Positions 11,301 to 54,206 of a stretch of 64,000 nt of DNA are shown piece after piece. The translations under genes and the position numbers were made by a program. How positions within the stretch are numbered: position 1 is the stretch's first letter; every line of letters starts with the position of its first letter. The stretch is from Escherichia coli (lineage in GTDB: Bacteria; Pseudomonadota; Gammaproteobacteria; Enterobacterales; Enterobacteriaceae): NCBI RefSeq assembly GCF_041886205.1, contig NZ_CP169030.1. One strand, written 5' to 3'. Below the pieces are notes generated by a model, which worked only from the letters and a program-made list of their open reading frames with translations, did not search any database and was not told the DNA's origin.

Positions 11301-13648
11301 CTGACGGAATGCCCGGGCGTTTCCACCCAGCCGTTCTCCAGCTTCAGTGCCGTGAACGGTGAATCGCTCACAGGCAGGGTGGCCGGTTCAGCCCGTCCCG
11401 GCACAACAACCGTCATCGTGTCCTCACTGACGGACGACACCTGCAGGCGGTCACCGCCGGAGACGCGGAGTCCGGGAATTTTCCCTGTCACCCTCAGACG
11501 CTCGCCGTCTGCCACCGGCATTTTTTCCGGCCGGAACAGCGACCAGCTGCTGTCCAGAGAAGAAATACGCACCACCTGCGTTTCGCCCTGCGCATCCCGC
11601 AGGGTCAGGCTGTGACTCTGCGCCGTCACCCGGTCTATCACATAGCGGTCATGACTGCGTGTCTCCGGGTTCCACTGCTCCATCACCATCCCCGGGCGGT
11701 ACATATCCCGCAGATAACGACTCCGGCTGTCCAGCCAGACCGGTGACAGCGCGGTCATGGTCACCTCCGGATGTCCGAGTACGCCCTGTGTTTTCAGCTC
11801 ACTGCGAATGGTCTGAGTCAGCATGGCCTGTTCCCGTACTCCACTGACCTGCGCCACGCTCTCTTCTCCGGCTTTCACGCTGACCGCAAAATCTCCGGCC
11901 AGCCGGGCATAGCGGACATTACGGTCCGGTTCACTGATGATGGTTGCCGGTCGCTGTTCTCCCCCCTGCCAGCGATATGTGTTCACTCCGGCATCCTTCA
12001 TGGCCATCAGCGCACTGCCGGTACCGGTCCGCTGCCCGCTGTCGATTATCAGGACCTGTACGTTATGCCGTGCGGCACCGTCCAGCAGAGTTAACGTCTC
12101 TTTCAGGGAGAGTTTTTCGCCCTGGTCGACGATAACGGTACTGCCCGGCGTGAAGGTCATGCCCTCCAGCAGCTGACGCCGCCCGGTTATCAGCTCACCG
12201 GACAGACGCTCATCCTGCTTCATGTTCATCTGCGAGCGACGGTCAGCAGCGATAATCTGCACCTCCCGCCCCTGCTCCCGGGCCATCATGACCAGTTCAG
12301 CCACCCGCTCACGCTGCCCGGCTGCACCGCCCTGCCCGGACACAATGGCCAGCGACGGGCGATCCTGTGCCAGCACGCTGACGGCATCGCTGTAACCGGC
12401 CGTCCGGGGAACACTTTTCTCCGGATGTACGGTCACCCGGTTCTGTTTCATGATGTCACGACTGAGTGCCCGGACTGACAGCTCATCGAGCACATGAATC
12501 CCGGACGTGAACAGCCCCTTCTCACGGTCGAGGGGGATAAGCTGCTCACGGCTGATGGCCTCATCGATACCGGCGCGTGCCCGTTCAATCACACCATTTT
12601 CCGGCGGCAGTATGCCGACCGTTCTGGCCAGTACGTCCGTGTACGTGAACTGCACTTTTCGTTCACTTAATCCGGCAATCGCCTGTGTCACCGCCTGCTG
12701 CACATCCGGCCCGTCCTGTGAAGCAGGCCCGGGCGTCAGCGTGCGGAGATCCGCACGCTGATCCGCCGCGTCACGATATGCCCGGATGTCGAACCCGGTT
12801 TCCTTCAGCGTCTGCATCCACTCGGCCATTTTGATCTCCGGATCGACATGCTGTTTGGATTTACGCGTATCCAGCGCCGCCACATCCCGGGATTTCAGCG
12901 AGGCGTCTTCCCCGACGGCCTCCCGGATAGTCTGTGAGCGTCCGGAAAAGGCCTCCACCGGTACACCCGGCATTTCCCACATACCGTGCTTACCAACCAC
13001 TTCAGTTTCATAGCCCAGCGCCTCAACCTGCTCTTTCAGTTTTTCCCGGTAGAGCCTGCCAAAGGCAATCTGATTAGCGTACACATTCTCAATGAACCCC
13101 GTTTTCCCCACTTTGTCACTGCTCAGTGTCTTCCATTCGCCATTATGCTGCGTGACATTAGCCACCACCGCATGCGTGTGTAACTGTGGTTCCTGATCGC
13201 GACTGGTGTCGTGGTTAAACAGTGCCATCACCAGATTACCGGTCAGCACCGTTTCTGACTGTCCGTCCGTCATCACCCGTGTGGAGGCCAGCGCCTCCAC
13301 CTGACGGACAGCAAAATCCACGGCCTGATTATGTGCATCAATCAGGCGCTTATCGCCACCTAACATGGCCATCATGGAGACACTTTTGGGGGCGGAGAAG
13401 GTCAGATCGTAGCCGGGACGATGCCTGTTACTGCCATCCTGCATGCGGCTTAGATCCGCTCCGTCCGGCAGCCTGCCCTCCAGAAGACGGGTAAAAACAT
13501 CCTTATCGACACTGCCCTGCAGCCCCAGCTGTTCAGCCCCCCTGCCGGCCCAGCGTTCTCCCATGCTGCCCAGCACATAGTAATTATCCTTGTCGGTATA
13601 ATAGTTCCCGGCACTTCCGGCCGATCTGACCTGCGCAATACTCATCAT
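8378..13648 (-). CDS. traI: TraI relaxase / DNA helicase I
   Basis: 1756 aa; N-terminus MMSIAQVRSAGSAGNYYTDKDNYY of F TraI; Walker A GYAGVGKT. Confidence 0.97.
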   Translation of the reverse strand: MMSIAQVRSAGSAGNYYTDKDNYYVLGSMGERWAGRGAEQLGLQGSVDKDVFTRLLEGRLPDGADLSRMQDGSNRHRPGYDLTFSAPKSVSMMAMLGGDKRLIDAHNQAVDFAVRQVEALASTRVMTDGQSETVLTGNLVMALFNHDTSRDQEPQLHTHAVVANVTQHNGEWKTLSSDKVGKTGFIENVYANQIAFGRLYREKLKEQVEALGYETEVVGKHGMWEMPGVPVEAFSGRSQTIREAVGEDASLKSRDVAALDTRKSKQHVDPEIKMAEWMQTLKETGFDIRAYRDAADQRADLRTLTPGPASQDGPDVQQAVTQAIAGLSERKVQFTYTDVLARTVGILPPENGVIERARAGIDEAISREQLIPLDREKGLFTSGIHVLDELSVRALSRDIMKQNRVTVHPEKSVPRTAGYSDAVSVLAQDRPSLAIVSGQGGAAGQRERVAELVMMAREQGREVQIIAADRRSQMNMKQDERLSGELITGRRQLLEGMTFTPGSTVIVDQGEKLSLKETLTLLDGAARHNVQVLIIDSGQRTGTGSALMAMKDAGVNTYRWQGGEQRPATIISEPDRNVRYARLAGDFAVSVKAGEESVAQVSGVREQAMLTQTIRSELKTQGVLGHPEVTMTALSPVWLDSRSRYLRDMYRPGMVMEQWNPETRSHDRYVIDRVTAQSHSLTLRDAQGETQVVRISSLDSSWSLFRPEKMPVADGERLRVTGKIPGLRVSGGDRLQVSSVSEDTMTVVVPGRAEPATLPVSDSPFTALKLENGWVETPGHSVSDSATVFASVTQMAMDNATLNGLARSGRDVRLYSSLDETRTAEKLARHPSFTVVSEQIKTRAGETSLETAISHQKSALHTPAQQAIHLALPVVESKKLAFSMVDLLTEAKSFAAEGTGFTELGGEINAQIKRGDLLYVDVAKGYGTGLLVSRASYEAEKSILRHILEGKEAVMPLMERVPGELMEKLTSGQRAATRMILETSDRFTVVQGYAGVGKTTQFRAVMSAVNMLPESERPRVVGLGPTHRAVGEMRSAGVDAQTLASFLHDTQLQQRSGETPDFSNTLFLLDESSMVGNTDMARAYALIAAGGGRAVASGDTDQLQAIAPGQPFRLQQTRSAADVAIMKEIVRQTPELREAVYSLINRDVERALSGLESVKPSQVPRQEGAWAPEHSVTEFSHSQEAKLAEAQQKAMLKGEAFPDVPMTLYEAIVRDYTGRTPEAREQTLIVTHLNEDRRVLNSMIHDVREKAGELGKEQVMVSVLNTANIRDGELRRLSTWETHRDALVLVDNVYHRIAGISKDDGLITLQDAEGNTRLISPREAVAEGVTLYTPDTIRVGTGDRMRFTKSDRERGYVANSVWTVTAVSGDSVTLSGGQQTRVIRPAKERAEQHIDLAYAITAHGAQGASETFAIALEGTEGSRKLMAGFESAYVALSRMKQHVQVYTDNRQGWTDAISKAVQKGTAHDVLEPGADREVMNAQRLFSTARELRDVAAGRAVLRQAGLAGGDSPARFIAPGRKYPQPYVALPAFDRNGKSAGIWLNPLTTDDGNGLRGFSGEGRVKGSGDAQFVALQGSRNGESLLADNMQDGVRIARDNPDSGVVVRIAGEGRPWNPGAITGGRVWGDIPDNSVRPGAGNGEPVTAEVLAQRQAEEAIRRETERRADEIVRKMAENKPDLPDGKTEQAVREIAGQERDRAAITEREAALPEGVLREPQRVREAVREIARENLLQERLQQMERDMVRDLQKEKTLGGD

Positions 13649-13729
13649 AAACGTATATCCCTTTGACATATCCCGGCATCAATCCCACAATGGATATACA
13701 CAAGACATATCCACATAAGGAGGCAAATA

Positions 13730-39849: not shown

Positions 39850-40250
39850 TACCTTTTTTGAACATAAAATAAAGTTAATTTCGAAACACTAAAATTCATA
39901 ATGCAAACAGGGACGCACCGCTAGCAGCGCCCCTAGCGGTATCCTATAAAAAAACACACCGCGCCGCTAGCAGCACCCCTAATATAAAATAATGTTTTTT
40001 ATAAAAATAGTCAGTACCACCCCTACAAAACGGTGTCGGCGCGTTGTTGTAGCCGCGCCGACACCGCTTTTTTAAATATCATAAAGAGAGTAAGAGAAAC
40101 TAATTTTTCATAACACTCTATTTATAAAGAAAAATCAGCAAAAACTTGTTTTTGCGTGGGGTGTGGTGCTTTTGGTGGTGAGAACCATCAACCTGTTGAG
40201 CCTTTTTGTGGAGTGGGTTAAATTATTTCCTGATGACGTCACCAGAGGTG
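39850..40250. other. oriT: oriT, with F-type nic motif TTTGCGTGGGGTGT|GGTGCTTTTGGTGGTGAG (nic about 40164/40165) and TraM/IHF/TraY binding-region repeats
   Basis: Nic-site consensus of F; imperfect repeats GCACCGCTAGCAGCGCCCC at about 39915-39980; perfect 12-bp IR at 40036-40069. Confidence 0.85.
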
Positions 40251-42289: not shown

Positions 42290-42309
42290 GTTTCATTCTC
42301 CTGTGTCTG

Positions 42310-43030
42310 ATGTTTTCAGCCCCCATCATCTGTTGAGTTTCGGGAGCCGCGGTTTTGACGTTTTGCGGGGACCTGCTCTTTGCTCCCTCCGGTATTCACC
42401 ATCACCTGTTTGAGAACCTTCGCCGCATGGGGCATCACTGCCACGGCCGGAAACGACTGTCCGGGGGCAGACCGCAAAAGTTTTTGCCTGCTTTTGGGCA
42501 AAAAGTTTTGCGGGATGTGCATTTCACCCCTGGACTGGCGGAGACGGTTGTGGCTGTCTATGCCCCCGGCGACAGGGGCTTAAACAGGTGAATCGCACCG
42601 GACAGAACAACGGGCAGGGACCCGCCGCAACGACGTGAAGCGCGGTTTGCGAAACGGCGTTGCTCCTTACATCCCGGCGTCTTTTTGCCGGGATGCCGGG
42701 AGCGCAGGTCACGGCGCGACAAGGGTGGCGCGACCGTTCCGGTCGCTGAAAACCCGGGTTTTTGCGTCAGGGATGGAAGCCGCCAGGGCGGAGACAGCTC
42801 CGCTGGCTCCGTTCACGACAGCCCGCCCCGCCAGGGGGACGCCCGGAAAAGGCACTGCCAGGAGAACAACAAAACAGAGAGTAATCAGAGCAGCAGAAAA
42901 AAGAAGAACAGTAGCAGGAACCGCAACATCATCAGTAACAGACAAATGACAGGTCTGAAAAGACAGAAGCCCACAGCAGAACGTCCGCGTAATGAAAGGG
43001 GCGGCGCGTCAGCGCGGCCTTTTTTACCAG
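42310..43030 (-). repeat. Leading-region structured repeat copy A (candidate ssDNA promoter, Frpo/ssi-like)
   Basis: One of four direct copies; extensive dyad symmetry; abuts RBS of 41993-42289. Confidence 0.6.
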
Positions 43031-43066: not shown

Positions 43067-43381
43067 CTACAGCGCTGCCAGTTCATTCAGGATATGGGGG
43101 TTTCGCTCAACCATTTTCATCAGCAGGATGGCTTGTTTATTAGGTTTAGCCAGTCCCTGCTCCCAGTTCTGCAGGGTAGTGACGCCGGTATGTAAATACT
43201 GTGCGAAAACAGCCTGTGATAGCTTCAATTTTTCGCGTACCGCTTTCACCTCATCGGGCGTCATAGTGACGGGTTTTGCGCTGACCTTGTGTGTTCTCAA
43301 AGTTTTTTTGCCAGCATTAAACTCTCCCCACGCAGCCATGCCTTCCTGCAATTCGCTAAAAATATCACGATCTTTCATCAA
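43067..43381 (-). CDS. HigA-like HTH (XRE-family) antitoxin
   Basis: 104 aa with C-terminal HTH; 4-nt overlap (ATGA) with upstream toxin gene. Confidence 0.75.
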   Translation of the reverse strand: MMKDRDIFSELQEGMAAWGEFNAGKKTLRTHKVSAKPVTMTPDEVKAVREKLKLSQAVFAQYLHTGVTTLQNWEQGLAKPNKQAILLMKMVERNPHILNELAAL

Positions 43382-43716
43382 CGCCCCCTTCGTCTGGCCT
43401 GTTCAAGCATTTCGCGTAAAATATCGCGCTGTGCTTTCGTCAAATCATCTTTCTGGTCTTTGTCATACAGGGTGAACAACAGAAAGTGGGATTTTTCCAG
43501 ATACCAGTAGTAAATCACTCTGATGCCGCCGCGTTTCCCCTTGTTACGCCTTGCATCCCCAAACCGTACCTTGCGCAATCCCCCGGTATGCTGGATAACA
43601 TCACCGCATAACGGATTTTTCAGCAACATCTGCTGAAACTCCCGAAACTCATCATCCGTGAAATATTCAGCACGATGCCGCTCGAACGGCGGCAACTCGA
43701 CAAATAGTGCTTCCAT
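43378..43716 (-). CDS. HigB/RelE-superfamily toxin (addiction-module killer protein)
   Basis: 112 aa with …KGKRGGIRVIYYW…LLFTLYDKDQKDDLT… motif typical of HigB-like toxins; toxin-first gene order. Confidence 0.75.
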   Translation of the reverse strand: MEALFVELPPFERHRAEYFTDDEFREFQQMLLKNPLCGDVIQHTGGLRKVRFGDARRNKGKRGGIRVIYYWYLEKSHFLLFTLYDKDQKDDLTKAQRDILREMLEQARRRGR

Positions 43717-43828: not shown

Positions 43829-44074
43829 TCAGAAGTTCCAGCCCATCCGCTTTTTTTTGAAAACGGCTGTATGTGAAACCATCGCATCGATCAGTGCATC
43901 AAGCTCTGCGCGGAGCTCCAGTATCCTGGTTGTAAACGTATTTTTGCCCTGGCTGGTCATCCAGTTTAAATATGCCTGTACCGCGCGTTCCTGCATGATT
44001 TCGATTTGGGTAATAGCATCTTTTTGCTGATCGCCAGCAGATTTAAAATTTTTTCTGAAAACAAATGCCCCCAT
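43829..44074 (-). CDS. Hypothetical small protein, paralog of 41993-42289
   Basis: 81 aa sharing GDQQKDAI(A/T)QI(G/E)IMQ motif. Confidence 0.55.
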   Translation of the reverse strand: MGAFVFRKNFKSAGDQQKDAITQIEIMQERAVQAYLNWMTSQGKNTFTTRILELRAELDALIDAMVSHTAVFKKKRMGWNF

Positions 44075-44142
44075 TTTAATTTCTCCTGTGTTCTGTAATA
44101 CCTGGATATCCGGGTAAAGGGGCGTTTACGCCCCCCGCTGAT

Positions 44143-44475
44143 TTACATGTTCTGCTCGCTATGTATTCTTCTATTCACAATTGAAAATAAATGTTTTTTT
44201 TGCGATATCACTTTTCTTTTTATAATTCGCACAATTTCAGGCATCGACTTGTTCAGGGGGATCCATGCAGTATCCCCGTTCAGTTCATCATATACACACC
44301 CATAGATATGAAGCATTCCGTTCATTACAAAGCAGTACATTGAAAAATGTTCATATTTTTTCTCCGCACTGATTAACTGAAAATAACCTTTTATTAAACC
44401 CTGTTTCGGTGAAGGATTAATTAACCAGCCATTATCCAAAGATAAACAAATATGCTCAATTATTTTCTTTTCCAT
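44143..44475 (-). CDS. Hypothetical protein in low-GC segment
   Basis: 110 aa ORF, AT-rich island, followed by hairpin terminator at about 44100-44125. Confidence 0.45.
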   Translation of the reverse strand: MEKKIIEHICLSLDNGWLINPSPKQGLIKGYFQLISAEKKYEHFSMYCFVMNGMLHIYGCVYDELNGDTAWIPLNKSMPEIVRIIKRKVISQKKHLFSIVNRRIHSEQNM

Positions 44476-44529
44476 ATTTACTCCAACGAAAGCTTTATCC
44501 TAATTAATGGGGCATTGCCGCCCCTTGTG

Positions 44530-44799
44530 TTAAATGGCGTAGCCTCTTATCTGACTCAAAAACTGTTTGAAGTGATCAGCTTCCGCAATGTTGATATGGC
44601 GGAACTGCGTATCCACACCCCGGCTGAGCGCGTAGCTATAGCTGAAAGCCATCTTTTCCGGGTGGCTTTTGCGATATTTTTTCAGCTCATTCAGACTGCT
44701 GAACTCCAGGAGGTCCCACTCTTCTCGGGTGTTTTTTTTCTTTTCGGCAACAAGAAGCGTGTACGACGCGGTGTTAACGTGGATATTTCGGGTACTCAT
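44530..44799 (-). CDS. Hypothetical protein, first gene after repeat B
   Basis: 89 aa; SD upstream abutting repeat B. Confidence 0.5.
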   Translation of the reverse strand: MSTRNIHVNTASYTLLVAEKKKNTREEWDLLEFSSLNELKKYRKSHPEKMAFSYSYALSRGVDTQFRHINIAEADHFKQFLSQIRGYAI

Positions 44800-44814
44800 C
44801 CTGCTTTCTCCTCT

Positions 44815-45420
44815 CTCTGGTTTTCAGCCCCCATCATCTTTTGAGTTTCGGGAGCCGCGGTTTTGACGTTTTGCGGGGACCTGCCTTTTGTTCCCTCCGG
44901 TATTAACCATCACCTTTTTGAGAACCTTCGCCGCAAGGGGCATCACTGCCACGGCCTGACGCACCTGTCCTGGGCAGAACGCAAAATTTTTTACCGGGTT
45001 CTGGGTAAAAAATTTTGTGGGCTGTTCATTTACCCTGGACAGTCAGTGCGGCAGGTTGTGGCTGTATCAGCCCCCGGCGACAGGGGCTTAAACAGGTGTA
45101 TGGCACCGGACACAACAACGGGCAGGGACCCGCCGCAACGACGTGAAGCGCGGTTTGCGAAACGGCGTTGCCCCTTACATCCCGGCGGCCTTTTGCCGGG
45201 ATGCCGGGAGCGCAGGCCACGGCGCGACAGAGGCGGCGCGACCGGAACGGTCGCTGCAAGCCCGGGGTTTCGCGTCAGGGATGGAAGCCCGCCAGGGCGG
45301 AGACAGCTCCGCTGGCTCCGTTCACGACAGCCCGCCCCGCCAGGGGGACGCCCGGAAAAGGCATAAGCAGGAGAACAACAAAACAGACAATAATCAGGGC
45401 AGCAGTAATCAGAGTCAGAA
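44815..45420 (-). repeat. Leading-region structured repeat copy B
   Basis: Direct copy of repeats A/C/D. Confidence 0.6.
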
Positions 45421-46130: not shown

Positions 46131-46849
46131 TCACGCTGCCTCCCGGAGTTTGTTCGGCACCATCCACCGCTCCATCTCACGGACAGCGTGACCGGCCTCT
46201 CTTGCTGCAAGACTGGCTTCCGCAATAACCTGCCAGAACGGCATATCCTGCCACTGCCAGCGTTCCATTCCGGCCAGTGACGGAAAACGCTCGCCCCACT
46301 GCCAGAACAGGGTTTCCAGGTCATGCTCTGCCACCCGGTCACTCCAGCGTGCATGCCAGCTTCCGACTGTTTCCGGCGAATGGAATGCCAGTTCGATTTC
46401 AGCCTGAGCGACCAGCGCCTGGTACGCACGGGCTTTCTGCTCTGCCTCCCGTGCCTGCTGGCGGCTGTACTTCTGCATGACCAGCGCGGATTTATGGCGA
46501 CTGCGCTCCCTGACACGAAACCGCACCGACGGAAACAACCGCTCTGCTGCATCACCAGGAAGGGGAAGGAGGCAGACCTCGCCCTGTGTTTCAATCAGCA
46601 CATCGATGGCATACAGCCACTGAAGACGGTTGCCGTGCAGTTCTTCTGCGGTCAGGGACGGCATGAAAAATCGCAGGTCAGACAGCGATATCCTGCGGCT
46701 TCCGTTCAGACAGCGGAAAAACGCCCCCGCATACGGATATTCGCCAGCGTGTTACCCTGATGGCGGCGTTTTTCTGTCTCCGCCACCGCCCGCCATGCGG
46801 CCTGTTGCTCTGTGCTGAGGGGAACCAGTGCCTGTGAACGTACGCTCAT
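46131..46849 (-). pseudogene. psiA: psiA (plasmid SOS inhibition A), apparent frameshift near 46742
   Basis: N-terminal 36 codons ([43 protein letters not shown]) are in a different frame from the remaining PsiA body (from …EYPYAGAFFRCLNG…). Confidence 0.7.
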
Positions 46850-47280
46850 ACCTGACCTCCTTCCGCCATCAGGATATGGATGATGTCGTTAACGCTGTAC
46901 CCCTGCGTATCCAGTGACGCCGCCAGTGCCAGTGAATGACTGACGGCTTCCGGTGCAAACCGCCGCTGTACCTGAACCACCGCAAACGGCTCACCACCGG
47001 CATTCACCAGAACCAGCACCCAGACCTGAGAGACATCGCCCGGTGAACATAACGCCAGGTGAAAACGTTCGTGAGCAGGCGTGAAACGGACCTGGACGGG
47101 GGAAAAGCCGCCAAACTCGCTGCCATACTCGCCGTTCATCGTCCAGTTATCCGGCGCATCCAGCTCCCGCATCACGGCATGTGTGAGTTCACGACGTTCA
47201 TCACTTCCGACAGCCCGGATGTCTTCATATTCCTGTGCGCTCATGGTCTGTAATACATTCAGGGTCAGTTCAGTTTTCAT
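46846..47280 (-). CDS. psiB: PsiB, anti-SOS (RecA inhibitor)
   Basis: 144 aa [12 protein letters not shown]…; stop abuts psiA start. Confidence 0.93.
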
Positions 47281-47334
47281 CACGGTATCTCCCTTGCTGC
47301 CGCCCCGTCTCCGGCGGGGCGGTGTGGTTGTTCA

Positions 47335-49293
47335 TCAGGCGGCATCAGCCAGGTTATCGGTGCGTTCAGTGGTATCCGTCTGTGGATGTGGTGCACACAT
47401 CCAGCCAGGCACCCAGCGGTTGTCTTTCATATGGTGCTCTGCATGTTCAGCCGCATCGCTTTTCTTCATCTTCTCCGCGTCCCGTGCGGCACCGGACAGT
47501 CCGGCGTCATTCAGGGCGTCGATAATCTGCGGCTTTTTCAGGTGTCCGAAGAAGTTTGCTTTTGTCGGCTGCCACCAGTCACGCATGTGGAATCCGATAG
47601 CGGTTTCCAGCGAGTCAAGCGGACTGCGTGACGTGTGACCACACTCACGGGTCTGGACACCGTTAAGGCTGCATGCGGTGCAGAAACTGAGCAGGGACAA
47701 CAACACCTCCTGGCGGAGTGACAGGAACGTCGTCATGTCCCGTGACCATCCCTCCGCCAGCAGGGCTGCAAGACGGGCTTTTTCTGCCATCAGCGCCATG
47801 AATGCGGCACCTTCCTTCCCCGACGGCGCATCGCTGGTCAGCGAAGAATGCCCACATTCCAGACGAATTTTTGCGGGATTGCTGTACGCTCCGCTGCCAA
47901 ACACATTCAGGCAGAGCGTCCATGCCAGCAGTGCCAGGGATTTGTCCGGCTGCTGCATCAGTGCTGCCTGGACTGCCAGCGTGCGTTCGGAAGACATTTT
48001 CGTCAGCAGCGGCAGACTGATTTCCTCCACTGACGCTTTTTCCTGCACCTGTTCCGTGCGGTCAGCGTCGTCAGCCGCATCATCCTCACTGCGTAACTGC
48101 ACACCACGCTGGACACATACGTTTCCATAACGCCAGGACACCACCACGCCACTTCCGGCACGCATCTCCGGCGTCCACGCCCTGACCTTCGCCATGCAGT
48201 CAATCAGCTTCATTTCTGCTTCCGGCAGGTCGGATTCCTCACACTGGTTTTCCAGCGCGTCGTAACGAGCCATCAGTTCGTTCAGGCGTTCGTCTTCCGC
48301 CTCCGTCAGCACCGCTTCCGGCTCCGGCAGACTGCGGTATGCCCGGGCATCTTCACGGCACTCACCGACAGGCTCCATGCGTCCGGCGCACCATCCCCAG
48401 CCTTCGGCTTCCCGAAGGAACTCTGCGACAGCCTGGAGTTTTTCCAGCAGGGCAGCATCGAGCGCCACGCAGTCCACATAGCCACCCTCGTTGTCGCTGA
48501 ACAAATCGGTGCGCAGTTCATCTGGCGAGAAGGCATCAGCCCCCACGAAGCGGAATTTACTGTTCCCCGCCACCGCCACTTCACTTTCGGTCACCAGACG
48601 ACGAATGGTCTGTACTTCCGGTTTTCCGCCCCATCCCGACTGACAGGCAGCTTCAAACACCTGTACCTGACGCGCGGTGTCGTTCTCCAGCGCCAGCGCC
48701 TGACAGTGCTCTGTGGTGATGCGGTCTTCTGCCAGCGCATCGAGGATGACAGGCGCAAGGTCAGCCAGTTTCAGCATTCGCTGAACGTGGCGAGGCGAAT
48801 AACCCAGCAAATCACCGATTTGTGCAGGTGTTTTGCCTTCCTGCGCCATTGCGCGGAATCCGGCAATCTGTTCAGCAGGGTGCATATCCCGACGATGACC
48901 GTTCTCGGTCATCGATGCAGCCGTCGCCAGTTCCTGCGGAATAATTTTCACGCGGACAGGCCAGTCAGCCGGAATGATGCCACGTTCTGCCAGCATATTG
49001 AGTGCTGCCAGTCTGCGACCACCTGCGGCGACACCGTAGCGGTCACCAGGCAGGGCATGAACAACCAGATTCTGCAGCAGGCCGACACCTTTAATTGACT
49101 CCGCCAGTTCGCTGACGGACTCCACAGAATACGGCACCGTGCGCACATTCAGCGGTGATTTAATCAGTGAAGCCAGCGGCACGCTCACTTCCTCCGTCTG
49201 CGCCAGCAGGGCAGACAGTGCCGTTTCCTGTGTTTTTGACAGTTTACGGCTGGATTTACGCCCCGTTTTTGCCTTAGACTCTGTAACTGACAT
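47335..49293 (-). CDS. ParB-like nuclease-domain protein of leading region (orf652-like)
   Basis: 652 aa; N-terminal ParB/Srx-like motif (…GLLQNLVVH…GGRRLAA…). Confidence 0.8.
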   Translation of the reverse strand: MSVTESKAKTGRKSSRKLSKTQETALSALLAQTEEVSVPLASLIKSPLNVRTVPYSVESVSELAESIKGVGLLQNLVVHALPGDRYGVAAGGRRLAALNMLAERGIIPADWPVRVKIIPQELATAASMTENGHRRDMHPAEQIAGFRAMAQEGKTPAQIGDLLGYSPRHVQRMLKLADLAPVILDALAEDRITTEHCQALALENDTARQVQVFEAACQSGWGGKPEVQTIRRLVTESEVAVAGNSKFRFVGADAFSPDELRTDLFSDNEGGYVDCVALDAALLEKLQAVAEFLREAEGWGWCAGRMEPVGECREDARAYRSLPEPEAVLTEAEDERLNELMARYDALENQCEESDLPEAEMKLIDCMAKVRAWTPEMRAGSGVVVSWRYGNVCVQRGVQLRSEDDAADDADRTEQVQEKASVEEISLPLLTKMSSERTLAVQAALMQQPDKSLALLAWTLCLNVFGSGAYSNPAKIRLECGHSSLTSDAPSGKEGAAFMALMAEKARLAALLAEGWSRDMTTFLSLRQEVLLSLLSFCTACSLNGVQTRECGHTSRSPLDSLETAIGFHMRDWWQPTKANFFGHLKKPQIIDALNDAGLSGAARDAEKMKKSDAAEHAEHHMKDNRWVPGWMCAPHPQTDTTERTDNLADAA

Positions 49294-49356: not shown

Positions 49357-49632
<276 letters not shown>

Positions 49633-49646
49633 TCACAATCAGTCGT

Positions 49647-50186
49647 TCAGAACGGGATATCGTCTGAAAACCCGTAATCCTCACCCTCTGGCGGTTGCGG
49701 CTGAGGCTCCGGCTGCGCGGCCTTACGTCCACGGCCTTTCGTTTTCGCGCCTCCTTTTTTCGTACCTGCCTCCGCCAGTGGTTCCAGCTGAGGCTGACCG
49801 CTGAACTGTTGCGCCTCTTCCGGCTGAGTCTGAGCACCTGCGGCACGTCCCAGCATCTGCATGGTGCCCGTGGTCTTAACAAGAATTTCAGTGACGTAAC
49901 GGGTGATACCGTTATCTTCCCAGCTACGGGTGCGAAGCTGGCCTTTGATGTAGACCTGCGCGCCCTTACGCAGATATTCACCTGCCACTTCCGCGAGCTT
50001 GCCGAACAGCACCACGCGATGCCATTCTGCCTGCTCCCGCATCTCCCCCGTCTGTTTGTCACGCCAGCTTTCTGACGTGGCCACCTGCAGGTTTGCCACT
50101 GCGCCCCCGTTGGGGATGTAACGGACTTCCGGATCTTTTCCCAGGCGTCCTACGAGAATGACCTTGTTAATGCCACGAACTGCCAT
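49647..50186 (-). CDS. ssb: Plasmid single-strand DNA-binding protein
   Basis: [23 protein letters not shown]… OB-fold and acidic C-terminal DDIPF tail; SD AGGAG. Confidence 0.95.
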
Positions 50187-50204
50187 GATGTGTCTCCTTC
50201 TGTT

Positions 50205-50930
50205 GATGTTTTCAGCCCCCATCATCTGTTGAGTTTCGGGAGCCGCGGTTTTGACGTTTTGCGGGAACCTGCTGCTGTATTCCCTGTGGTATGAACTTCA
50301 CCCGTTTGAGAACCTTCGCCGCAAGGGGCATCACTGCCACGGCCTGACGCCCCTGTCCTGGGCAGAACGCAAAATTTTTTACCGGGTTCTGGGTAAAAAA
50401 TTTTGTGGGCTGTTCATTTACCCTGGACAGTCAGTGCGGCAGGTTGTGGCTGTATCAGCCCCCGGCGACAGGGGCTTAAACAGGTGAATGGCACCGGACA
50501 CAACAACGGGCAGGGACCCGCCGCAACGACGTGAAGCGCGGTTTGCGAAACGGCGTTGCGCCTCACATCCCGGCGGCCTTTTGCCGGGATGCCAGGAGCG
50601 CAGGCCACGGCGCGACAGAGGCGGCGCGACCGGAACGGTCGCTGCAAGCCAGGGTTTCGCGTCAGGGATGGAAGCCCGCCAGGGCGGAGACAGCTTCGCT
50701 GGCTCCGTTCACGACAGCCCGCCCCGCCAGGGGGACGCCCGGAAAAGGCATAAGCAGGAGAACAACAAAACAGACAGTAATCAGAGCAGCAGAAAAAAGA
50801 AGAACAGGAGCAGTAGCAGGAACAACATCATCAGTAACAGACAAATGACAGGTCTGAAAAGACAGAAGCCCACAGCAGAATGTCCACGTAATGTAAGGGG
50901 CGGCGCGTCAGCGCGGCCCCTTTCACGCCA
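50205..50930 (-). repeat. Leading-region structured repeat copy C (immediately upstream of ssb)
   Basis: Direct copy; abuts ssb RBS. Confidence 0.6.
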
Positions 50931-50991: not shown

Positions 50992-51555
50992 TCAGGCACG
51001 CAGACGAATAATCATCGTCGAAGCATCGGTATAAGCAAACGTGCCGCGCGGCAGCTCCTCGCGGACGTCAGAAAACGGTAACAGCTTCTCCTGCTGGCGT
51101 GGCCCGTTGAGACAGACGGCGACCAGCACGCCACCCGGACGCAACAGGGAAAAAGCCCGCAGGATATGCCGGATATCCTGCCCGTGGCTGAACGGCGGAT
51201 TCATGATTATCCGGCTGTAATACTGCACCGGCTGCCATTCCATGAAGTCGCCACACTGTACCCTGACACCGTTAAAATTTTCCCGCAGATACCGGACCAG
51301 CCCGCTGTTAATCTCCACAGCATCACACATGGCCCCCGGCGCGGTATCCCGAATCGCCCGCAGTATGGCTCCGGTGCCGGCAGAGGGCTCCAGAATGTGA
51401 TCATGGTTGCTGATCTCCGCCAGCGTCACCAGGCGATCACAGACCGGGGCAGGTGTCACAAAGAGCTGAGATTCAGCCCGGATTTCAGCAACTGGCGCAG
51501 CGTTATCCAGCCTTGCGCGCATCAGCCGGATACGTTCTCTTAACTGACTGTGCAT
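50992..51555 (-). CDS. Orphan DNA amino-methyltransferase (motif I EPSAGTGA, motif IV NPPF)
   Basis: 187 aa with SAM-binding and (N/D)PP(F/Y) catalytic motifs; no adjacent restriction gene. Confidence 0.7.
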   Translation of the reverse strand: MHSQLRERIRLMRARLDNAAPVAEIRAESQLFVTPAPVCDRLVTLAEISNHDHILEPSAGTGAILRAIRDTAPGAMCDAVEINSGLVRYLRENFNGVRVQCGDFMEWQPVQYYSRIIMNPPFSHGQDIRHILRAFSLLRPGGVLVAVCLNGPRQQEKLLPFSDVREELPRGTFAYTDASTMIIRLRA

Positions 51556-51601
51556 GTCATTATCTCCGTCATACCCCGGGGCTTTTCCCCGGGGATAAGC
51601 C

Positions 51602-52963
51602 TTATTTCTGCGGGATTTCCGTGATTTTCATGTCGGTGATATACACATTCACCAGGCGGAAATTATTGTCCATTGTGCGGCGGTAACGATATGCCCCGTG
51701 GTCTTCTGCCTCTGCCACACTGCGCACGGCCTTACAGTCCCGGGGCAGGGCGGCCCACTGTGCCTTTGTCATTTCCCGGAAACCTTCTCCCGGATAGTTG
51801 ACTACCGGCGGACGCTTCGCGGCCTGTCTGGCGACGGCGGCCTCTTCTGCCGATGGTGCTTTGTAGTCCGTGATGCGATCGGGCGTCACTTTCATCGTGC
51901 CGCTGTACCCGAGAAAACTGTAATTTGGCGTTGTGACTGAACTCACTGCCCCGTTGCTTTTGTTCACGCGGATGATGGTCAGCCACTCGCCCCGGCTGAA
52001 AACCTGTCCTCCCGGCTCAAAATCCTGTGTCCGGGTAACCACGCCGACGCTTTCTTCCAGCATGGCACGCTCATAGATCAGGCGGTTCTGATAGTGGTTA
52101 ACCCAGCGTTGCTGATGCTGAATCTGCCGTTCATGGCAGCGGATCGCAATTTCGCGGGCCTGCTCCGTGGTGATGATGTCATCATCCAGGGCCGACCATA
52201 ACGATCGACTTCCTTCATACTGGCTTTTTTCTGCCGGGCGCGGATACGTATCCAGCGGGAAACAGGCACTGATACGGTCACAACTGCTGATGAGTTTTGC
52301 CATATTCAGATCCAGCGATTCAGCCCGCCACATCGTCAGATATTTCTGCGACTGCGCGATGGTCTTTTCAGACTTGCGCAAATCAGCTTCGATTTTTTTG
52401 ATACGACGCCAGCGAACGTCCGGACGTTCTTTATACTTCGCGTGAAGCAGTGCCGACCGCGCCCGCTCCTCCCAGTATTCCGCACGTTCAAAGAGCATCA
52501 CGGCACGTTTCATACCATTTTCAATACGCTGCGCATCACGACGGGCGCGGCGTTCGCTGTGATGCCCCACAAGGATCGGCTGACCGGGCGGGATCATCGC
52601 GGCCAGTCTTTCCACTTCCTCAAGTGCCTGTGCGGATTCACTGGCCCGCTTTCCGCTGTATCCGGTAAACCGCTCCGCCCGTGCTTCCTGACGTTCAGCG
52701 AGCGTGCTGTCTTCATCCTCAATCTCTCCGGCAAGTGAGAGGAGCACGTCTTCCCGGCCCGGTGTCCAGGCTGGCGCGACAAACAGCGTCTGTTTTGGTG
52801 CCCAGCGGAAACCGGCATCATGTACTTTCTTATACGTCTCCGGGTCAAGACGTGACGCGGCATACAGGCGCAGTTTGTTGTCATCCGGTGAGTAGGTCGC
52901 GCGGTACATCTGCACAGGGCTGGCAGCTTCCGGGGCGGTCATGGTGATTGCTGCTAATGTCAT
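51602..52963 (-). CDS. Hypothetical 453-aa leading-region protein
   Basis: Long ORF with coiled-coil middle region; family not recognised. Confidence 0.6.
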   Translation of the reverse strand: MTLAAITMTAPEAASPVQMYRATYSPDDNKLRLYAASRLDPETYKKVHDAGFRWAPKQTLFVAPAWTPGREDVLLSLAGEIEDEDSTLAERQEARAERFTGYSGKRASESAQALEEVERLAAMIPPGQPILVGHHSERRARRDAQRIENGMKRAVMLFERAEYWEERARSALLHAKYKERPDVRWRRIKKIEADLRKSEKTIAQSQKYLTMWRAESLDLNMAKLISSCDRISACFPLDTYPRPAEKSQYEGSRSLWSALDDDIITTEQAREIAIRCHERQIQHQQRWVNHYQNRLIYERAMLEESVGVVTRTQDFEPGGQVFSRGEWLTIIRVNKSNGAVSSVTTPNYSFLGYSGTMKVTPDRITDYKAPSAEEAAVARQAAKRPPVVNYPGEGFREMTKAQWAALPRDCKAVRSVAEAEDHGAYRYRRTMDNNFRLVNVYITDMKITEIPQK

Positions 52964-53014: not shown

Positions 53015-53245
53015 TCAGTTAAAAGCGCGTTTCAGTTCGAGTGTGCGGAGCACCTGCCCGAAGGCCGTGTTTTTCATGGCGGGGATGTGTACACCACGCC
53101 CCCGGTGAAAACTCCTGGCAATGTGTCGTCCGAAGGCTTTCAGCACGGGGTCAATTTCCGGCGCGGGGATGTCTTCGCGTCTGAAACGGGGATGACGGCG
53201 GGGCTTTACAGCCGCTGCGGAAGGTGAAACAATACTTACTGTCAT
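53015..53245 (-). CDS. Hypothetical basic small protein, first ORF after repeat D
   Basis: 76-aa ORF. Confidence 0.35.
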   Translation of the reverse strand: MTVSIVSPSAAAVKPRRHPRFRREDIPAPEIDPVLKAFGRHIARSFHRGRGVHIPAMKNTAFGQVLRTLELKRAFN

Positions 53246-53479
53246 AATTTAGCCTCTTATGACGTTAATTAATGAAACCGTAAAGACTGTTCGTGCAGTC
53301 TCTGCGGTGTGGATTAAGCAGGTCCCTGACCTGCTTTTTTCATATCTGCATCTGACGCTTTCCGGTGTTTTCCTCCTTCTGTTCCTGCGTTCTCATTACC
53401 TGCCAGCCGGATGACTGACAGAACAAATAAATGCGTATTGCCGGAGCCTGAAATAAATCCTGATTTTTAAAGAACATCA

Positions 53480-54010
53480 CCCGTTGAGTTTCGGGAGCCG
53501 CGGTTTTGACGTTTCGCGGGAACCTGCTGCTGTATTCCCTGTGGTATGAACTTCACCCGTTTGAGAACCTTCGCCGCAAGGGGCATCACTGCCACGGCCT
53601 GACGCACCTGTCCTGGGCAGAACGCAAAATTTTTTACCGGGTTTTGGGTAAAAAATTTTGTGGGCTGTTCATTTACCCTGGACAGTCAGTGCGGCAGGTT
53701 GTGGCTGTATCAGCCCCCGGCGACAGGGACTCATACGGGTGTGTGGCACCCGGCAGGCAATGAGCAGGGACCCGCTGCAACGACGTGAAGCGCGGTTTGC
53801 GAAACGGCGTTGCTCCTTACATCCCGGCGGCCTTTTGCCGGGATGCCAGGAGCGCAGGCCACGGCGCGACAAGGGCGGCGCGACCGTTCCGGTCGCTGCA
53901 AGCCGGGGGTTTTGCGTCAGGGATGAAAGCCCGCCAGGGCGGAGACAGCTCCGCTGGCTCCGTTCACGACAGCCCGCCCCGCCAGGGGGACGCCCGGGAA
54001 AGCCATAAAC
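53480..54010 (-). repeat. Leading-region structured repeat copy D
   Basis: Direct copy (left end diverged). Confidence 0.6.
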
Positions 54011-54206
54011 AGGAGAGGAACGGAAAGAAGAGGAAGAAGAACAGTAACCACAGAAACATAACATCAGGAAAAAACATTCCGGACACATCACAAACGGGAA
54101 GGGAAGCGGGCGACGCGCCAGCGTGGCCCGCTTCCCTTCCGGCAGGCGCCAGCCTGCCAGGGGTTTTCGCGCGGGCTGACAGGCGGCCTCCACCGCCTGC
54201 CCTGTA

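Follow-up and report, generated by a model that had tools for sequence, protein, structure and literature searches.

Proteins built on the ParB fold do not serve DNA segregation only. The closest described system to the gene treated here is yfjB of the F plasmid, the product of which was studied by Virolle et al. (bioRxiv, 7 July 2026) and renamed HerB; its homologues are called parB2 in pED208 and yfhA in IncI plasmids (PMC13370423). We analysed a stretch of 64,000 nucleotides (nt) of Escherichia coli DNA (RefSeq assembly GCF_041886205.1, contig NZ_CP169030.1), called the window below, which carries a gene of this kind. We refer to it as herB, and we take yubM to be a further name of the same gene. 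On the evidence of its predicted translation, this open reading frame (ORF) is the orthologue of F-plasmid YfjB, and its product would probably act as a transient, cytidine triphosphate (CTP)-dependent, ParB-like clamp on the recipient chromosome, which reshapes transcription and eases the establishment of the plasmid. It shares with F YfjB/HerB a length of 652 amino acids (aa), a four-domain layout (D1 to D4), the residues of the CTP boxes and of the helix-turn-helix (HTH), a position between yfjA and psiB, and an Frpo2-type promoter upstream. It differs from it by 48 substitutions, and the psiA gene of the window is frameshifted.

Early expression, CTPgammaS binding, foci, chromatin immunoprecipitation (ChIP) peaks, transcriptome changes and the fitness effect are known from the F literature only. 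In F, Frpo1 and Frpo2 are single-stranded DNA (ssDNA) promoters, and the deletion of Frpo2 abolishes the early expression of ssb and yfjA fusions (PMC9849209). A YfjB-sfGFP fusion is produced at the same time as Ssb, YfjA and PsiB, while the incoming DNA has not yet been converted from the single- to the double-stranded form, and donors show none of these proteins (PMC9849209); in donor-depleted RNA sequencing, the transcripts of the Frpo1 and Frpo2 operons are recipient-specific (PMC12672017). F HerB is a homodimer. A cryo-electron microscopy (cryo-EM) structure at 3.6 A shows a domain-swapped, V-shaped D4 dimer, a crystal structure of D1-D2 was obtained at 2.6 A with bound CTPgammaS and Mg2+, and the cryo-EM structure together with truncations designates D4 as the core of dimerisation and of non-specific DNA association (PMC13370423). 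In transconjugants, the protein forms nucleoid-associated foci, which require D4, the HTH residues, R94 and E130; this localisation does not depend on the F plasmid, and the deletion of herB has no effect on F positioning (PMC13370423). ChIP followed by sequencing identified 156 chromosomal regions of 346-2971 bp, without any consensus or parS-like motif and without enrichment of F itself, and 20 of the peaks were reproduced in real matings, 4 of them in prophages (PMC13370423). Ectopic production of F HerB lowers the expression of 505 genes and raises that of 361, and the proteome and metabolism change accordingly (PMC13370423). Deleting herB from F leaves the conjugation frequency unchanged and raises the acquisition cost by ~10%, as seen in early transconjugant growth, and the deleted plasmid is progressively lost in serial conjugation-competition (PMC13370423). 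In pED208, transfer and the SOS response induced by mating are unaffected by the loss of parB2 (PMC8406263).

Three other groups of proteins come close to the herB product. KorB of plasmid RK2 is a CTP-dependent clamp of the ParB family that represses transcription, and it resembles HerB as a plasmid-encoded ParB-CTPase fold followed by an HTH and used in gene regulation; structural comparison of KorB with the N-terminal half of the herB product gave a Foldseek E-value of 2.7e-7 and a target-normalised TM-score of 0.60. KorB, which works with KorA, recognises defined operators on its own plasmid. HerB, in contrast, has no identified site, targets the host chromosome (PMC13370423), and carries a C-terminal half that is unrelated and much larger. 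Noc and the chromosomal ParB/Spo0J proteins are the best matches for herB residues ~25-220; the GxxR box that binds CTP and the ParB HTH are common to all of them, and Noc is likewise a ParB paralogue repurposed for a role outside segregation. However, these proteins have specific 16-bp loading sites, short C-terminal dimerisation domains and, for ParB, a ParA partner, none of which was found for herB. Finally, D1 has its core ParB/Srx fold in common (weak Foldseek matches) with the Osa-type ParB/Srx proteins and with sulfiredoxin. They differ by the lack of any significant sequence match with herB, which has CTP boxes and a complete HTH domain, and no evidence of nuclease chemistry.

Anatomy of the herB product and of its promoter

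The window itself established the orthology of the gene, the anatomy of its domains, the conservation of its CTP and HTH residues, the promoter repeat with its ssDNA fold, the strand logic and the spacing of the operon. The ORF finder returned the 652-aa frame of the first-pass annotation, on the minus strand and opened by an ATG, and a ribosome-binding site, AAGGAG, lies 7 nt 5' of this codon. The alignment with F YfjB (WP_000117173) covers the full 652-residue length and its four domains without a gap and gives 604/652 identical residues (93%), the substitutions being distributed across all domains. The F counterpart (NC_002483 59538..61496) is annotated 'ParB/RepB/Spo0J family partition protein'. 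At the nt level, the two alleles are 92.3% identical, without gaps or stops, and the ratio of nonsynonymous to synonymous substitution rates (dN/dS) is 0.18, each domain staying below 0.35; herB is thus intact and under purifying selection. Moreover, phrog_7783, a PHROG family of unknown function, matches residues 37-644 (E 6e-252). The feature is real, correctly placed, and already known and characterised through its F orthologue.

The N-terminal half contains two Pfam domains, both above the gathering score: ParB_N (residues 43-131, E 3.5e-7) and HTH_ParB (residues 136-222, E 1.4e-8). D1 displays the three boxes of the CTP-binding ParBs: Box I with N49 and R51; Box II from G91 to A97 (GGRRLAA, including R94); and Box III at residues 128-132 (MTENG, including E130 and N131). 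Basic residues of the HTH (R168, R172 and K175) can be read from the translation, and all the CTP/Mg-binding and DNA-contacting residues share their numbering with those of F HerB (PMC13370423). The window protein possesses the CTP boxes and the HTH residues expected of a HerB. Across an alignment of 102 full-length homologues, the most distant at 28% identity, no substitution occurs at G91, R94 or N131, and conservation reaches 98-99% at E130, S127, N49 and R51. Sequence and profile searches of the PDB matched residues ~20-220, and the structures returned were all of Spo0J, ParB, Noc or KorB. With an AlphaFold2 (AF2) model of the protein (pLDDT 89.3), the best Foldseek match is Myxococcus xanthus ParB bound to cytidine diphosphate (CDP) or CTPgammaS, followed by Noc, Spo0J, Caulobacter crescentus ParB, KorB and PadC; sulfiredoxins match weakly (E 0.03-0.3).

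The domain analysis that had been proposed as a check thus yields a ParB CTP-switch module and an HTH, and the ParB/Srx fold of the first-pass annotation holds for the N-terminal half (Pfam and Foldseek). On the contrary, the 'nuclease-domain' label given to the same protein does not survive, since the CTP boxes are kept and the proteins closest in structure are CTP/CDP-bound ParB, Noc and KorB. This wording presumably echoes the older Pfam name of PF02195; the current name of the model that matches herB is 'ParB N-terminal domain'. Judged from its residues, 'nuclease' appears to be a legacy family name rather than a supported property, and as a description of the protein it is wrong or at best legacy.

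The C-terminal half has another status. No Pfam match was obtained for about residues 238-652, and searches of the PDB with its sequence and profile gave only coiled-coil matches at noise level and no relative. D3, of mixed alpha/beta type, and D4, which is helical in the AF2 model, are specific to the family and unlike the C-terminal domain of canonical ParBs.

A repeat of ~600-700 nt is present in four copies in the window (42297-43027, 44805-45379, 50193-50926 and 53448-54021). The third, directly 5' of ssb, is presumably the 'repeat C' behind which the first-pass annotation placed an ssb-psiB operon containing herB; this membership is confirmed, and the repeat is of the Frpo2 type of ssDNA promoter. 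It shares 92.9% identity with Frpo2, the sequence lying upstream of ssb in F, and the + strand at 50226-50620 forms, as ssDNA, a single long hairpin (-109.6 kcal/mol; z = -8.3 relative to shuffled sequences). The direction of transfer can be read from the motif GGGGTGTGGTGCTTT, which we take to be the F oriT nic-region motif; it is found once in the window as an exact match and, in F, at the corresponding place, between the SLT gene and traM. Because it lies on the + strand, this strand is the transferred one and serves as template for the leading genes of the minus strand. The transferred strand enters 5'->3' toward higher coordinates, which places herB 7-9 kb from nic, in the leading region. 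Transcription on the minus strand follows the order ssb, DUF905 gene (yfjA), herB, psiB, psiA, with gaps of 29, 63 and 51 nt among the first four genes. Directly 5' of herB, a consensus scan of the minus strand gave no sigma-70-like promoter, and a scan of the minus strand inside the ssb-psiA cluster found no convincing intrinsic terminator. The gene is thus T-strand-templated and belongs to an ssb-yfjA-herB-psiB-psiA cluster behind an Frpo2-type promoter, as in F. Co-transcription of ssb, herB and psiB is supported by homology and anatomy in the window and by experiment in F.

Proposed action in the recipient and competing explanations

From the 93% identity, we infer that the window allele behaves like F HerB, and the following scheme can be proposed. 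The gene would be carried by the first DNA entering the recipient, about 7-9 kb from oriT, and the Frpo2-type hairpin promoter would transcribe it together with ssb, yfjA, psiB and psiA. Since this promoter is active only while the incoming strand is single-stranded, HerB should be made briefly, in new transconjugants, and established donors should make none. The protein would be a homodimer of four-domain chains, with D1 as CTP switch, D2 as HTH, and D3 and D4 specific to the family, D4 forming the core of the dimer and providing non-specific association with the nucleoid. Most likely, the CTP-dependent clamp would be loaded onto the chromosome of the recipient instead of the plasmid or a parS site, and it would cover many regions of a few hundred to a few thousand bp each. 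It would then alter host transcription both directly and via regulators, thereby lowering the transient cost of plasmid acquisition. Loading and sliding as a clamp would be the mode of DNA association, a deduction even in the F work.

The first-pass annotation had considered the role in establishment unclear, a statement overtaken by the description of HerB as a chromosome-binding host reprogrammer (PMC13370423, July 2026), and it had staked its reading on the gene not proving both dispensable and unexpressed at that stage. On expression, the reading stands: in F, the gene is expressed during establishment, before the conversion to double-stranded DNA (PMC9849209). On dispensability, the answer is divided. 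Conjugation proceeds at an unchanged frequency without the gene in F and in pED208, and likewise when Frpo2 is deleted (PMC9849209, PMC8406263, PMC13370423), but the loss of the gene costs ~10% of early transconjugant growth and makes the plasmid lose in serial-transfer competition (PMC13370423).

Several points weigh against a clamp that reprograms the recipient. The functional model comes from one unreviewed preprint, in which the transcriptome and the main ChIP were obtained by ectopic expression, and only 20 ChIP peaks were recovered in real matings (PMC13370423). No loading site, loading partner or CTP hydrolysis cycle is defined for HerB, and its fitness effect is small, about 10% (PMC13370423). 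In two IncI extended-spectrum beta-lactamase plasmids, yfhA loss-of-function arose repeatedly, with an increase of transfer in one host strain and not in another (PMC10104558); HerB can thus be costly or conflict-prone, with a benefit that depends on the host. Besides, 48 residues separate the window allele from that of F, and the psiA gene further downstream in the cluster carries a frameshift.

[quoted passage not shown] We hold this to be unlikely. A Cre-ParB2 fusion of pED208 does cross the T4SS (about 1e-3 recombinants per donor, PMC8406263), 4/20 of the mating ChIP peaks fall within prophages (PMC13370423), and the effects of yfhA loss in IncI plasmids are specific to the host strain, which led their authors to suggest a genetic conflict with recipient loci (PMC10104558). 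Anti-defence genes are also enriched in leading regions (PMC11541004), and distant homologues of herB adjoin antirestriction, methylase and ArdC genes. However, the PADLOC defence models gave no significant match to herB (sub-threshold only, E 0.0086), no anti-defence phenotype is reported, the deletion in pED208 alters neither transfer nor mating-induced SOS (PMC8406263), and the amounts of protein found in transconjugants require de novo synthesis (PMC9849209).

It is far less probable that the herB product is a nuclease, or an NTPase-nuclease, of the ParB/Srx fold, which, like Osa of pSa, would cut recipient or competitor DNA or process the incoming strand. D1 does fall within the ParB/Srx superfamily, with sulfiredoxins among its weak Foldseek matches, and Osa-like proteins are counted among the repurposed relatives of ParB (PMC13370423). 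Yet every strong match in sequence or structure is a CTP-switch ParB, Noc or KorB, and kinship to the enzymatic members over these was not found. No Osa chain stands among the PDB profile matches listed (E <= 1), the presence of Osa in this copy of the PDB being unchecked. The conserved residues are those of the CTP-binding boxes, and a complete ParB HTH domain follows D1. Crystals of the F protein contained CTPgammaS and Mg2+, and R94 and E130 are needed for its foci (PMC13370423); the growth of HerB-producing cells also argues against gross DNA degradation.

Last, that herB encodes a second partition or centromere-binding protein acting on a plasmid site during establishment is scarcely credible: the domain pair of a ParB is present (Pfam), TIGR00180 parB_part is passed just above its cut-off (62.6 bits vs 58.45) and public records call the product a partition protein, but the gene is flanked by DUF905 and psiB with no adjacent ParA-type ATPase gene, the only such gene scanned (sopA) lies beside sopB, ~415 residues unlike any ParB C-terminal domain follow the HTH in place of a short dimerisation domain, F positioning is unaffected by herB deletion while HerB localises alike without F and shows no ChIP enrichment on it (PMC13370423), and expression of the gene is shut off when the plasmid has become double-stranded (PMC9849209). 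The first-pass annotation had already set this protein apart from the partition ParB, and rightly so: SopA and SopB are encoded at 59.8-62.0 kb, 11 kb from herB (SopB_HTH match, E 2.8e-42). A pattern search of the window for the canonical chromosomal parS gave one locus, in sopA, at chance level, which was rejected as a HerB loading site; a divergent site could escape such a search.

The herB cluster and its surroundings

The window belongs to an F-like conjugative plasmid, because it encodes TraI (8378..13669), SopB (59850..60821), SopA (60821..61996) and a Rep3/RepE initiator (62575..63330). The features of the herB region are collected in Table 1.

Table 1. Position and supporting evidence of herB, its domains and the neighbouring features in the window
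Feature	Coordinates	Strand	Evidence
herB / yfjB (parB2, yfhA, presumably yubM), predicted 652-aa ParB-like CTP-binding protein	47335..49293, stop codon included	-	ORF finder, ATG start
D1, ParB N-terminal CTP-binding domain, residues 36-136	48886..49188	-	Pfam ParB_N; Foldseek CTP/CDP-bound ParBs
D2, ParB helix-turn-helix	48589..48885	-	Pfam HTH_ParB 136-222; alignment to Spo0J structure 1vz0
D3, mixed alpha/beta domain, residues 238-417, without known relative	48043..48582	-	
D4, helical C-terminal domain, residues 418-652	47338..48042	-	AF2 model
Plasmid ssb, first gene of the cluster	49647..50186	-	Pfam SSB E 1e-36; NCBIfam PRK13732 E 2.9e-113
yfjA (DUF905), second gene of the cluster	49357..49590	-	Pfam DUF905 E 5.9e-33
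psiB, SOS inhibitor, next after herB	46846..47283	-	Pfam PsiB E 3.9e-62; NCBIfam equivalog E 8.3e-82
psiA, interrupted by a 1-bp deletion near 46742	46131..46850	-	Translation; alignment with F
Frpo2-type ssDNA promoter repeat, directly 5' of ssb	50193..50926	+	Hairpin core ~50226-50620 on transferred strand
Presumed oriT nic-region motif GGGGTGTGGTGCTTT	40158..40172	+	Exact match, once in the window

The start of ssb was set at M14 of a longer ORF, following the family models (the PRK13732 match begins at residue 14). At the position equivalent to that of yfjA, F carries an annotated DUF905 gene of 234 nt. In psiA, one G is missing relative to F (CTGGCGGAATAT -> CTGGCGAATAT), so that translation meets a stop after ~32 codons, and the C-terminal 177 aa are intact and match PsiA; the frameshift is either that of a real pseudogene or a sequencing error. 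As a result of this frameshift, the copy of the operon in the window is not fully intact.

In the spacer between herB and psiB, a GC-rich 8-bp hairpin (CCGCCCCG...CGGGGCGG) occupies positions 47298-47324, and the same sequence exists in F. We rejected it as a terminator: in the sense of the messenger RNA it lacks a T-run, and its fold has a z of -0.8. It is thus probably not a terminator, and it might have an effect on mRNA stability or on psiB translation.

The four repeats are direct, with 85-95% mutual identity, and are potential substrates for recombination, like those that deleted the operon in IncI evolution experiments. The 16-kb F stretch NC_002483 52000-68000 holds two Frpo-type copies, vs four in the window. 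Each copy precedes minus-strand genes: DUF932; small ORFs; ssb-herB-psiB; and a 76-aa ORF with the genes of a DUF3560 protein and a methyltransferase. The latter group (50992-52963 and 53015-53245, minus strand) encodes the 76-aa product, a DUF3560 protein of 453 aa and a class I S-adenosylmethionine-dependent methyltransferase of 187 aa; it is T-strand-templated and lies upstream of Frpo copy C, behind copy D. The 187-aa enzyme may be the counterpart of the ssDNA-active methylases found in the leading regions of pESBL and F.

Between the first two repeat copies (A and B) sits a toxin-antitoxin-like pair (43067-43716, minus strand), additional to hok at ~45.7 kb. It consists of a RelE-like ORF (43378..43716, minus strand; Pfam E 2.4e-4, below the cut-off) that overlaps an MqsA/HTH_3 antitoxin-like ORF (43067..43381). 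After this pair, three small ORFs at 43829-44799 have no Pfam matches.

Spread of the family, divergence of the allele and significance

The gene is widespread. At least 5000 PLSDB plasmids carry herB/yfjB, as do 3377 of the 5426 complete E. coli genomes (62%). In a representative library of 1.8 billion proteins, 1233 clusters match at E <= 1e-30; among the library matches listed, full-length members are mostly 600-700 aa long, with identities down to about 30%. Some distant homologues have telling neighbours: one that is 34% identical is located between antirestriction/methylase genes and psiB-psiA, and another, 31% identical, lies near ArdC.

The window allele is divergent, since its closest records are at 95.3% nt and 95.7% aa identity (among the PLSDB matches listed and the complete E. 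coli genomes). Around its 3' end, the similarity to F changes: over 71 nt, from the end of herB across the spacer into the start of psiB, identity to F is 100%, vs 92.3% for herB itself, and the aligned stretch of about 300 nt comprising the end of psiB and the start of psiA is 99% identical. Such a mosaic of identities suggests, at the sequence level, either that recombination has left a boundary close to the 3' end of herB or that this gene has diversified in an allele-specific way.

An unlikely extension is that the divergent allele has host-specific targets, or a role beyond metabolic reprogramming, e.g., the silencing of recipient prophages, defence loci or resident plasmids. Behind it stands a protein with at most 95.7% aa identity to the plasmid records searched, within an F-identical psiB/psiA backbone. 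Two observations would agree with this possibility: in IncI plasmids, the effects of losing yfhA depend on the strain, and ParB2 is translocated through the T4SS. Were the extension true, the allelic diversification of HerB would reflect a conflict with recipient genomes.

With respect to the F system, the window adds nothing new, since the gene, its control by an ssDNA promoter, its structure and a function are published for the F orthologue. The practical value is a correction of annotation: the product should be called neither 'partition protein' nor 'nuclease'. Thousands of public records still name the gene 'ParB/RepB/Spo0J family partition protein', and these, together with the annotation of phrog_7783, could be updated. 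Most F-like plasmids, and many other conjugative resistance plasmids, carry a member of the herB family, which acts in the minutes that follow DNA entry, a stage still poorly understood; in HerB, a CTP switch of the ParB type is repurposed to manipulate the host chromosome.

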